Made by a program: the position numbers. This document shows positions 9,001-12,000 of a stretch of DNA of 15,180 bases, one piece after another; positions within the stretch are counted from its first letter, which is position 1; the number at the start of each line of letters is the position of its first letter. Origin of the DNA: a virus (lineage: Duplodnaviria; Heunggongvirae; Uroviricota; Caudoviricetes); the IMG/VR virus record IMGVR_UViG_2563366825_000027, positions 1 through 15,180 of that record. The stretch is one strand, 5' to 3'.

Positions 9001-12000
9001 ACCCGCAGGCGGTCAATGTTCGCTGACGTAATGGTGCGTGTCACCGGTTTTGCCTTCGTCACTTCCACACCCAGTACAGTTTCAGCTCCGGAGGACTCAA
9101 AGCCTTCCGGTGGTGTCTGCTCCTGCTCCCCGGCGCGCCAGACCGCGGTCACACCGTGTATCACGGGATTACCGTCCGTGTCCGTCAGCGGGGTTTTGTT
9201 CACCAGAATACTCTGCAGGCCTTTCACCGGACCTTCAATGGGTCCCTCACCAATCGCATCAATCACGCTCATCATCTGCGTGGATTTGAGATTATCCTTC
9301 GCCTCACGAGGCGTGTGTGCCTTACCGCCACCTTTTCCCATACAGCCTTCCCCTGAATAAATTAACCGCCACTTGCCATTCCGTACAGAAGTCGGATATC
9401 CTTCGCCCGAAAAGCATGAAACACATTTCTGCCATGCTAAACAGAAACCCCGGTATCAGCAGATACCGGGGTTTTCTTTCATGCCCACCGATAATCCTGT
9501 TGGTTAAAACCGGTAATGGCATAAAAATTCTGAATATCTTCACATTTTCACACACTGACTGTGGCGCTTATAATTTCGCTGCGTTAGTGTTTTTTTGCCC
9601 GAGTAACAAAAACAACTCCTTAACATTAATCTTCATTTGTCTGTCCCCGCAGCTCCGCGATCACTGCGGGATTTTTTTATGTTTTATCCCTGTCGACCAA
9701 TAACCACCACCTTTCCGTCTCCGCCTTCATCACGGGTGCTGATGTCCTGAGAGATACGTCGTGAACCAACCAGCATTTCACCGTAGGGCACCGGCATCGG
9801 GTTGCCCTGGGCAATCATGTTGTCCAGTGAGGAAAAGTACGTGTTCTGTTTACCGTTATCCGTTGCCCGGTAATCCGGTGTTTTTGCCTTCGGGGCCAGC
9901 ATCTGGGCCACACCGCCCAGAATCATACTGGCCCCCAGTGAAAACAGCATCGTGGTGGCAGAAAAACCACCGGCTGCCAGGGCTGAACCCCATAACGCCA
10001 TCGAGGCACCGGCAGTGAGGAAAGAGCCCACGATGGCTGCCGCCCCCAGCACAATCTGCAATCCGCCCTTTCCGGCACCGGCCAGTCGCGGCACAATATG
10101 GATGACCGTTCCCTCACCCAGCTGTTCGTGAAGACGGGCGTACACCGCCTCCGGTGCCGTGTCATCACCGGCAATACGTATCTGGTACCAGCCTTCGTTC
10201 ATCTGACGGCGGAATCCCGGCACCTGCAGCGACAGGGCGCGGATGGCTTCCGCCGCCGTGTTCACATACAGGCTGAAGCGGCGGCCAAATCGTTGTAAAT
10301 CCCCGTGAAGGCAGATGCGTGCCAGTGGCGGTGACGCCAGACAGAATGCGTTCGTCGTTGCCATTTTTCGGAATACCTCTCCCGTTTACTCAGTTGTTCA
10401 GGCAGATGGTGAAGCAGTTCACCGTTGCCGCAGTAAATGGCGGCATGATTAGCCACCGATGCGCCGAAGCAGCACAGCAGGATATCGCCCGGCAGTGCAG
10501 AGGACAGGGGCACCCGGTAAAAGCCCGTTGCCTCCATATTGTCCAGGTAAAGGTTCTGACCGTTGCACCACCAGTCATCCTCACGGTGAAAATCCGGCAT
10601 ATCAATGCCTGCCAGATGGTATGCATCCCGGAACAGGGTGTAACAGTCCGTCACACCGTGCTCAAAGCGCCGTCCCGTCAGGTGTGGCACACAGCGGAAT
10701 TTGTGAATGTCACCCCGGCAGACCAGCCACCAGGGCAGGGCACTTTTTATCTGCAGTCGCCGGTCTGCCTCACTCAGCCAGGGCAGACCACCGGGATGAC
10801 TGTGGACCAGCGCCACAATCTCACCCTGCATCTCCGCCCGCAGCCAGTCTTCCGGGGCAATACGAAAATACGCCTCCGGCGCTGCGGAGATATTCACACA
10901 GGGCAGGTACCGCTCGCCCTCCGTCGTGGTTATCACGAAGCCGCACGACTCCGCAGGCGCACACCGCCGGGCATGCGCCAATATATTGCTATAGAGCATG
11001 AGAACTCCTGATAAAAAACCCAGCCGAAGCTGGGTTTGTTAAGTTGTCAATTGTCAGTAGCGATGCAGTGAAGGCGGCAACTCTTTGTTCTTAAGCCTTT
11101 CCCATGCCAGAAGGTTCGTCGGCCCGTCAGGCTCATAAATATCTATATCCCGCGTGTGATTAATTAAAACGCCCCTCGCCCTCCAGATGGTATACGAGAA
11201 CTCATAGCCGTAGTCGTGGCATATGCCGGAATAGCCAGACTGAATCAGTTTTAATGCGGGATACAACTCACGGAACAATGCCTGTGAGCGGTTAGCATAA
11301 TCCCATAGCCATACAAGGCTGTTTGCTTCTTTTGCGGAAAGCTCGTTGGTGCTCTTCTCTTGTTTGCCGATTAACTCTCCTTCAAGCGGAACGCGAGCAG
11401 CAAGTGACAGAGCTTCGGTAAACTGCTCCTCGCTGATTTCTCTGTACGAACATCCAAAATGTGATTTCAGTGACGACCACATGGTGATCATCGCCTTCGC
11501 CTGTTTTTCCTTTGGCAGAGACTGACCGCGACTCATGACGAGTTGTTTAATGGCTTCCTGCTGTTCAGTAGTGATTTTCCCCGGCAACGCCTTTTTAGCT
11601 TTCAGTGTATTTCCGTAAGACCCCGTTTTACGAATGGATGGCAAAACTTCAGCTGTCACCCATTTGCGGAATTTGTGCGGGACTGAACCTTTATTGACGG
11701 CATCGCGGCAACGCAGAACCAATGTATACATACCTGATTCGCTCACAATGCTTAAATTCTGCTCACCACCAAGGGTGTAACTTAAAGTTACTCCCTTTTC
11801 ATCGTCATCAAGTGCAGTAAGCGCCTTGCGTGAGTTAGTCAGATTTAAAGCATCACAAACATCTTTTGCTACAAACCACGGCTCACCGCACTTGTTGATG
11901 ACGCGGATTTCACTGTCGCCGAATTTGAAGATGGTGAAATCGTTTTGTGCCTTTGCTATACTTTTCATGTCAATATTTCCTAATCCGATTTGTTGATACC

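Follow-up and report, generated by a model that had tools for sequence, protein, structure and literature searches.

The window analysed here comprises the 15,180 nucleotides (positions 1 to 15,180) of the IMG/VR virus record IMGVR_UViG_2563366825_000027, assigned to the Caudoviricetes, and carries a lambda-like tail operon on its minus strand. Pfam searches of the window proteins identified JAB and NlpC/P60 domains in K and a Phage_tail_L domain in L. Between the tail genes I and J lies an intergenic gap of 342 bp (9342-9683), and within this gap we describe a predicted small RNA (sRNA) gene, read from the plus strand, that is related to EcOnc22, EcOnc23 and EcOnc24 of Escherichia coli O157 Sakai (Table 1). 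An earlier note on the same DNA had set the size of the gap against the tens of bases that separate I and J in lambda. This difference was confirmed, with the lambda gap spanning 60 bp (15445-15504) from the end of I at 15444 to the start of J at 15505.

Among relatives, the two parts of the gap recombine independently: one left part occurs with different sRNA variants, and vice versa. Gap lengths fall into clusters of 233-260, 338-344 and 418-422 bp. Left parts and RNA variants reassort freely, with the conserved box at 9526-9547 forming the junction.

Table 1. Features of the gap between I and J, followed by other loci in the window. Positions are those of the window.
Feature	Position	Strand	Description
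J	5874..9341	-	tail operon, minus strand
I	9684..10364	-	Pfam Lambda_tail_I
Gap between I and J	9342..9683		mosaic of a left part (9342-9527) and an sRNA module (9528-9683)
Perfect 13-bp hairpin	9445..9474		arms 9445-9457 and 9462-9474, 100% complementary; 4-nt loop; T-rich runs on both sides
Conserved box AATTCTGAATATCTTCACATTT	9526..9547	+	just upstream of and overlapping the -35 element; CRP-like TCTGA-n6-TCACA
Predicted sigma-70 promoter	9547..9574	+	-35 TTCACA (9547-9552), 16-nt spacer, -10 TATAAT (9569-9574); 11 of 12 consensus matches
Predicted sRNA, EcOnc22/23/24 family	9581..9678	+	about 95-98 nt; start inferred 7 nt after the -10 element, end in the U7 run
5' module	9590..9616	+	U7 run (9590-9596), variable loop (GCCCGAGU), A-rich tract AAC AAA AAC AAC (9605-9616)
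Conserved core with candidate seed AACUCCUUAACAUUAAUCUUC	9614..9634	+	predicted single-stranded; conserved flanks, variable middle of 4-6 nt
Intrinsic terminator and Hfq 3' module	9646..9678	+	7-bp GC-rich stem, 11-nt loop, A, U7
22-codon open reading frame, rejected as a gene	9636..9568	-	MKINVKELFLLLGQKNTNAAKL; ATG start
YadA-type membrane anchor protein, moron	1542-2816	-	downstream of the tail fibre genes
Hok/Gef 46-aa open reading frame	5536-5676	-	Pfam E 2.4e-11
sok	5665-5822	-	Rfam 59.6 bits against a threshold of 59
Ant antirepressor	11054-11968	-	Bro-N and P22_AR_C
sar antisense RNA	11970-12036	+	Rfam 69.4 bits
Arc-like ribbon-helix-helix protein	12258-12530	+
ClpP-like protein	12530-13066	+
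OmpC-like porin, moron	14017-15180	-	upstream of L

A predicted sRNA gene and its conserved parts

The earlier note had placed a plus-strand TATAAT at 9569-9574 and a plus-oriented terminator at 9646-9678. Both are present: the hexamer has a TTCACA 16 nt upstream, and the terminator stem is followed by A and T7. Throughout the family the -10 element occupies one fixed alignment position, as TATAAT, AATAAT, TATCAT or GATAAT. The terminator stem of the window is formed by CCCGCAG (9646-9652) and CTGCGGG (9664-9670), with the T run at 9672-9678. It has the form of a terminator on the plus strand only; because the A/T run precedes the hairpin on the minus strand, this hairpin is not a terminator of the tail operon. 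One variant stem is fully compensatory (CCCACAG/CUGUGGG) and one is a different stem (CUCCCG/CGGGAG), and an RNAalifold analysis of 26 variants gave support for the terminator stem only. Counted within 1 kb, promoter-like matches (3 vs 0.8 expected) and terminator-like matches (3 vs 1.0 expected) were only modestly above chance. On the basis of this conservation in relatives and of the published RNA data for homologous loci described below, the promoter and terminator are not chance matches.

The box that overlaps the -35 element was unchanged in all 31 distinct gap variants gathered via the I protein, with variation on both flanks, and its family-wide conserved form can be written AATTCTGAAnnTCTTCACATT. 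At 14 of 16 informative positions it resembles the consensus binding site of CRP. Its centre lies about 44.5 bp upstream of the predicted start and 32.5 bp upstream of the -10 element. Canonical CRP sites have their centre at -41.5 in class II and at -61.5 or similar positions in class I; the spacing of the box is not canonical class II.

Downstream of the promoter, the 5' module combines a U run with an A-rich tract, and both are kept around the variable loop in all variants. The A-rich tract consists of four A-R-N (ARN) repeats of the Hfq distal-face type, a motif for Hfq that was described by Tree et al. (2014; PMC4104026). Pairing of the U run with the A-rich tract into an AU hairpin is predicted to be possible. 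The core at 9614-9634 has a predicted unpaired probability of about 0.9 in the window variant. It includes CUCCUUA (9616-9622), the anti-Shine-Dalgarno sequence at the 3' end of 16S rRNA, which makes the core complementary to strong Shine-Dalgarno sequences.

Comparison of the variants separates a constant from a changing part of the gene. Conserved are the box, the position of the -10 element, a 5' GCGUUA, a U run of 5-9 nt, the ARN-type A-rich tract, a pyrimidine-rich motif (CUCCUU, UUCCUU, CUCCCU or CUCCAU), UUAAUCUUC and the terminator. The spacer between the -35 and -10 elements, the loop between U run and A-rich tract and the terminator loop all vary, as do 4-6 nt halfway along the core. 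The window RNA carries three sequence modules of the Hfq type, namely the U7 tail, a U-rich stretch before the terminator and the (ARN)4 tract, and it ends as Hfq-dependent sRNAs generally do, in a Rho-independent terminator with a long U tail (7-bp GC stem, U7). Together, the conserved features fit a Hfq-dependent base-pairing sRNA with a C/U-rich seed. Rfam had no match in 9342-9683 at the gathering threshold; searches at E values up to 10 returned sub-threshold matches of the terminator type only, the best with 26.8 bits against a threshold of 48.

Homologous RNAs of E. coli O157 Sakai and distribution of the family

The segment 9521-9683 is homologous to the gaps between I and J in the Sakai prophages Sp15, Sp14, Sp11 and Sp9. 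Between the window RNA and EcOnc22 (Sp15) identity is 76% (76 of 100 aligned columns), and intermediate sequences connect the variants. Published data document RNA from three of these loci. Using cross-linking and analysis of cDNA (CRAC) with Hfq, Tree et al. (2014, Table S2; PMC4104026) found plus-strand peaks for EcOnc22 (Sp15), EcOnc23 (Sp14) and EcOnc24 (Sp11), and EcOnc22 gave a Northern band of about 85 nt and was destabilised in an hfq deletion. Waters et al. (2017; PMC5286369) used RNase E cross-linking, ligation and sequencing of hybrids (CLASH), and the reads attributed to EcOnc22/23/24 have the sequence GCCTGAAAAATAACTCCATAACGTTAATCTTCA.

Assigning these data to the gap required a correction of coordinates between the older Sakai record and NC_002695.2. 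The offset is +135 at 2.9 Mb and 137-144 at 1.94 Mb, where AgvB1 sits 137-144 nt further along NC_002695.2 than the table of Tree et al. (2014) has it. After the +135 correction, the coordinates of EcOnc22, EcOnc23 and EcOnc24 coincide with the gaps of Sp15, Sp14 and Sp11. The uncorrected Table S2 coordinates would put EcOnc22 over the short hairpin near J, about 23-84 nt from the J start; we rejected this placement as a genome-version artefact, since AgvB1 and the CLASH reads give the offset. In supplementary file 4 of Waters et al. (PMC5286369), EcOnc22 appears under the name 'asxR2', apparently a find-and-replace artefact.

With the coordinates corrected, the published signals fall on the predicted gene. 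The CRAC peak covers positions 3850-3910 of the Sp15 gap sequence (L003), which is the RNA body between predicted promoter and terminator, and GCCTGAAAAATAACTCCATAACGTTAATCTTCA is the plus strand of the same gap from 3853, likewise between promoter and terminator. The shared start of four independent CLASH reads, at one G directly behind the U run, suggests processing of the 5' end. One read continues through ...ACUCUGCGGGAUUUUUUU into that start, which agrees with a Sakai RNA that ends after U7. The EcOnc22 and EcOnc23 halves of CLASH hybrids span the region that corresponds to the core at 9614-9634.

EcOnc22/23/24 and the window RNA occupy the same gap, between I and J, and are all antisense to the tail operon; they share the box and the position of the -10 element, as well as the 5' GCGUUA, the U run, the A-rich tract, the UUAAUCUUC core and the terminator CCCGCAG...CUGCGGGAU7. 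They differ in that the window RNA is 6-7 nt longer than EcOnc22, owing to an insertion of GAGUAACA, and in that the window promoter is near-consensus whereas the -35 element of Sp15 is poor. The left part of the gap measures 186 nt in the window, compared to about 90 nt of different sequence in Sakai. The middle of the seed reads CCUUAACAUU in the window and CCAUAACGUU in EcOnc22. For EcOnc22, pairing with yjbJ (ECs5028, its best CLASH partner) was matched by one of 200 shuffled sequences; because the seed middles differ, this predicted pairing is abolished in the window variant.

We conclude that the window RNA is very likely a transcribed member of the EcOnc22-24 family. The earlier note had predicted a plus-strand RNA of about 100 nt that runs antisense to the tail operon; this is upheld in strand and position, through the Sakai homologues and the match to the CLASH reads, with the reservation that these homologues are 76% identical. 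The novelty that the note implied did not survive, as the RNA family was published in 2014.

A scan of IMG/VR with the 20-nt -35 box as query found more than 120 loci and approximately 45 distinct RNA variants; where enough flanking sequence was available, 107 of 115 sites found by the box sit between the C-terminus of I and the N-terminus of J. A second sample was collected via the I protein and is thus unbiased by the box. In this sample, the terminator was present in all 78 gaps between I and J and the exact box in 72. Complete E. coli genomes carried the family in 1814 of 5426 cases, with 5547 copies in total (median 2, maximum 11 per genome), and a gap of the window type was found at a coverage of at least 80% in 1422 genomes. 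Carriers of the window variant include E. coli 2018-166 (NZ_CP075632), whose gap is 100% identical, and the O157:H7 strain Z1830. The whole 15-kb window occurs in no complete E. coli genome, the best coverage being 79%. In the phage collection, all 147 records with the family were E. coli lambdoid phages, mostly converting phages for Shiga toxin (Stx).

Outside E. coli, a -35 box scan of species representatives (one genome each) yielded a credible copy in Escherichia albertii only; the other box matches were chance matches in unrelated bacteria, plus three tiny contigs that are probably contaminants. Sequence of the junction between I and J was noted on very short contigs assigned to Parendozoicomonas haliclonae (L140, 460 bp), Streptomyces flavalbus (L147, 3.4 kb) and Asaia platycodi (L132, 546 bp). 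Its presence in these three assemblies of unrelated bacteria is most likely contamination.

RefSeq annotation showed no gene under the match in any of the 30 records listed, and none in the gap of the two regions viewed. In E. coli O157:H7 Z1830 (L001), locus tags skip from RS15325 (J) to RS15335 (I), as if a feature in the gap had held the number in between and had later been taken out.

Several relatives have rearranged the locus. Sp9 (L251, 945-1090, minus strand) no longer has K and I, and a truncated L stands directly before the gap; it keeps the sRNA gene (with a shortened terminator loop) together with the hairpin ahead of J. In five relatives, the gap has grown to 851 bp and contains sodC, encoding a Cu/Zn superoxide dismutase (Pfam E 3.9e-32), on the sRNA strand (L196, 2372-2899, minus strand; L204, L232, L233 and L234). 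Here, sodC and its terminator replace the sRNA promoter, and the sRNA body and terminator are kept directly downstream; the sRNA could be made in these phages as a read-through product or as a product of the 3' untranslated region (3'-UTR) type. Three other loci hold tandem pairs of different family members 179 bp apart, in gaps of 418-422 bp: L008 (9949 and 10128), L063 (4151 and 4330) and L083 (7423 and 7602). The upstream copy of each pair has the terminator stem CUCCCG/CGGGAG and is without a recognisable -10 element. Finally, an insertion sequence with a transposase-like open reading frame (ORF) starting ATGACTAAAAATACACG splits the sRNA gene right after the -35 box in L054 and in the Asaia platycodi contig L132.

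The hairpin before J and the cargo of the tail operon

The perfect 13-bp stem that the earlier note had reported at 9445-9474 is present. Its predicted folding energy is -24.8 kcal/mol on the plus strand and -27.5 kcal/mol on the minus strand (z = -6.1 and -5.2, respectively), with none of 200 shuffled sequences as good, and by its sequence it looks like an intrinsic terminator in both directions. The 60-bp gap of lambda is essentially a hairpin, AAACCGCC-n4-GGCGGTTT, with a U-rich tract behind it on the operon strand. All relatives with short gaps have a hairpin CAGGCACCC-n4-GGGTGCCTG (GGCACCC/GGGTGCC) about 25 nt upstream of the box, and after it UUGUUUUU, a U-tract on the tail-operon strand. 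One pair of this hairpin changes from C-G to T-A, a compensatory substitution for which T.G and C.A intermediates were also found, and every variant has a hairpin. Because lambda and the relatives have a hairpin at the corresponding place, we regard it as ancestral to the junction between I and J. The hairpin can hence not be counted as part of a new insert, as had been suggested: a terminator-like, GC-rich hairpin precedes J in lambda and in every relative.

A weak promoter-like sequence, TTGCCA-18-TATCCT (9 of 12 consensus matches), was noted upstream of the 13-bp hairpin (window 9373-9482, plus strand). Together with the hairpin it would predict a second plus-strand RNA, about 70 nt in length, that would be peculiar to gaps with the long left part.

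Inserted cargo is found at several of the tail-gene junctions examined in the window, namely between K and L, between I and J, after J and beside L (Table 1). A module resembling P22 immI (11054-13066), with ant, sar and genes for Arc-like and ClpP-like proteins, is inserted between K and L. A type I toxin-antitoxin locus of the hok/sok type lies just downstream of J (5536-5822, minus strand). We considered and rejected a second such system in the gap itself, where the ORF opposite the sRNA is neither conserved nor hydrophobic and has no Pfam match.

A model for the RNA, alternative explanations and significance

We propose that the stretch from about 9526 to 9678 is a moron, a gene complete in itself that has been inserted between I and J and is transcribed from the strand opposite to theirs. 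The sigma-70 promoter would start the RNA near 9581 and the intrinsic terminator would end it in the U7 run at 9672-9678, giving an RNA of about 96 nt whose synthesis in the lysogen could proceed without the Q-driven late operon. Like its Sakai homologues, the RNA most likely binds Hfq, which would hold the U tail and the U-rich stretch on its proximal face and the AAC-AAA-AAC-AAC tract on its distal face. Through its unstructured pyrimidine-rich core (AACUCCUUAAC-AUUAAUCUUC), the RNA would then pair with purine-rich ribosome-binding or coding regions of host or prophage mRNAs, and this pairing would lower their translation and/or recruit RNase E. Differences in the middle of the core probably give each variant targets of its own. 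Separate from this gene and older, the terminator-like 13-bp hairpin of the tail operon would stop stray sense transcription into J in the lysogen, and here also antisense transcription coming from J, with Q-modified polymerase reading through. Taken as a whole, the model of a moron-encoded, lysogen-expressed, Hfq-dependent base-pairing sRNA is probable in our judgement; for the trans-acting mechanism of the window RNA taken separately, we see a modest balance in favour. The sequence features, the homology, the conservation and the published detection of the homologous RNAs are established, whereas for the exact variant in the window we infer transcription, both RNA ends, Hfq binding, the seed and any target.

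Several observations weigh against this model. The experimental data concern homologues that are 76% identical and not the exact window variant, and variant-specific strings of the window RNA had no match in the text of the CLASH supplement. Published hybrids of EcOnc22-24 (PMC5286369) amount to one or two reads each, with no target validated, and a 2021 review gives the targets of these RNAs as unknown. Pairing of the window variant with yjbJ was no better than that of shuffled sequences (96 of 200 as good), so no EcOnc22 target is carried over. The RNAalifold analysis found no covariation-backed structure beyond the terminator, and the columns of the 5' AU hairpin are invariant. Moreover, recombination and shared ancestry in the recent past, instead of selection, may account for part of the conservation among mosaic prophages.

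The position of the gene raises the question of action in cis. Over its full length the RNA is antisense to the tail operon, its place is fixed, and each variant matches perfectly only its own phage. It might pair with its own spacer between I and J, or with the nearly complementary one of co-resident or incoming lambdoid phages, to form a duplex of about 96 bp for RNase III, by which J would be uncoupled or silenced from leaky transcription in the lysogen or rival phages would be hindered. The terminator-like hairpins before J suggest that silence of J in the lysogen matters, and the window contains another antisense RNA of this sort in sar, which acts against ant. However, what the RNA overlaps is a non-coding spacer, about 230 nt upstream of where J starts, and not a ribosome-binding site, and the homologues bind Hfq and hybridise with unlinked mRNAs, neither of which a perfect cis-antisense RNA needs. 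The Sp9 copy persists despite the deletion of K and I, and the RNA body is kept in the sodC relatives though its promoter is replaced. We therefore consider action in cis unlikely. Titration of a core-genome sRNA, as by the sponges AgvB and AsxR, with the ARN tract held on the distal face of Hfq, would suit RNAs that come from the same laboratory screen and belong to the same class of short, prophage-encoded, Hfq-bound RNAs. The (ARN)4 tract lies in a variable 5' region, and AACAAAAACAAC within it is, in an unscored reading by eye, loosely like the CA-rich target motif of GcvB. The match to CACAACA is imperfect, however, no similarity to AgvB is apparent by eye, the hybrid records examined hold no sRNA partner, and it is the pyrimidine-rich core rather than the A-rich tract that is most conserved. 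Such a role appears improbable.

It could further be argued that the locus has no function at the level of RNA, its promoter and terminator being relics or insulators between mosaic modules and the box a recombination linker. The box does stand exactly where left parts and sRNA variants reassort, joints of lambdoid mosaics are often short conserved sequences, and single promoter or terminator matches are near chance level. Against this, homologous RNAs were detected and found to be Hfq-bound and Hfq-dependent, the pairing of the terminator is kept by compensatory changes, and the -10 position is fixed in all variants, which makes this explanation very improbable. A small-protein moron, in which a 22-codon or 66-codon ORF translated from the tail mRNA is the functional product, fares worst when compared across relatives. 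The ATG-started 22-codon ORF that the earlier note had raised exists as written, and a MKINV start recurs in several variants, but as a gene it fails: at 107 sites the homologous start codon is ATG in 58, ACG or ACA in 45 and not locatable in four. Where the ATG is present, the peptides have 17, 22, 30, 31, 39 or 54 residues and are unrelated past residue 5-10, single-nucleotide indels in T runs shift the frame between near-identical variants, and the proposed Shine-Dalgarno sequence GGGGA is buried in the terminator stem. The 66-codon ORF (9522..9322) was annotated as a hypothetical protein by one depositor, in phage ASU11; the 13-bp hairpin lies within it, and 1-nt indels interrupt it in two variants. 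Neither these ORFs (minus strand) nor a 128-aa ORF on the plus strand had a Pfam or PHROG match, and the RefSeq annotations examined have no gene here. We thus rejected protein-coding ORFs in the gap and regard a functional small protein as extremely improbable; the 22-codon ORF most likely lies opposite the sRNA by chance.

Beyond EcOnc22/23/24, several known systems are close to the RNA proposed here. Like it, HnrS (EcOnc10/11/12) is multicopy, encoded in the prophage late region, Hfq-associated and short, with an intrinsic terminator, and its repression of the host mRNA hha at the ribosome-binding site provides a working model (Poudyal et al., 2026, PLoS Pathog; PMC13502914). HnrS differs in its length of 66 nt and its restriction to strains positive for the enterocyte effacement locus (LEE), and EcOnc11 lies about 5 kb from AgvB1 in Sp10; identity of the two RNAs was ruled out by locus and by the description of HnrS in the literature as a separate sRNA. 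AgvB and AsxR (EcOnc01 and EcOnc02) are likewise Hfq-bound prophage moron sRNAs that are convergent with late transcription and have an ARN tract in a variable 5' region. In contrast to the RNA between I and J, they occupy the PR' moron site, measure 51-60 nt, share a 3' region of about 42 nt and act on the sRNAs GcvB and FnrS. AgvB was excluded as the identity of the window RNA by this location and by the dissimilar sequence of AgvB1. P22 sar (Rfam RF00262) is also a small antisense RNA in a phage operon with its own promoter and terminator, but it overlaps the ribosome-binding site of ant, acts strictly in cis and has an Rfam model, whereas the RNA described here overlaps a spacer only. The protein morons of lambdoid tail operons (sodC, lom/ail, porins) offer the same arrangement of a self-contained, prophage-expressed unit at a tail-gene junction, with an RNA taking the place of the protein product at the junction of I and J.

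A more speculative extension, which we hold to be doubtful, is that the family consists of a conserved scaffold (box, -10 element, U run, ARN tract, UUAAUCUUC and terminator) whose seed of 4-10 nt is swapped by recombination between prophages. A polylysogen would then carry a panel of seeds against host mRNAs or against the I-J spacers of rival lambdoid phages, sodC prophages would reuse the scaffold as a 3'-UTR sRNA, and the CRP-like box would link the panel to carbon status.

The RNA described here is of a known kind and its family is published; the copy in the window, an unannotated variant, has a seed of its own and a promoter that is stronger. As another moron-encoded Hfq sRNA, it changes no concept. 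What is gained is an exact model of the gene in one of its common variants, the offset of the Sakai coordinates, and a set of natural seed variants that can be used for finding targets. The gene occurs in one third of complete E. coli genomes, often in several copies, and is absent from the annotations examined and from Rfam. Sister RNAs from the 2014 screen, namely AgvB, AsxR, Esr41 and, since 2026, HnrS, control host physiology and virulence. A widespread, multicopy and seed-variable family with such regulatory sisters is therefore a reasonable next candidate.

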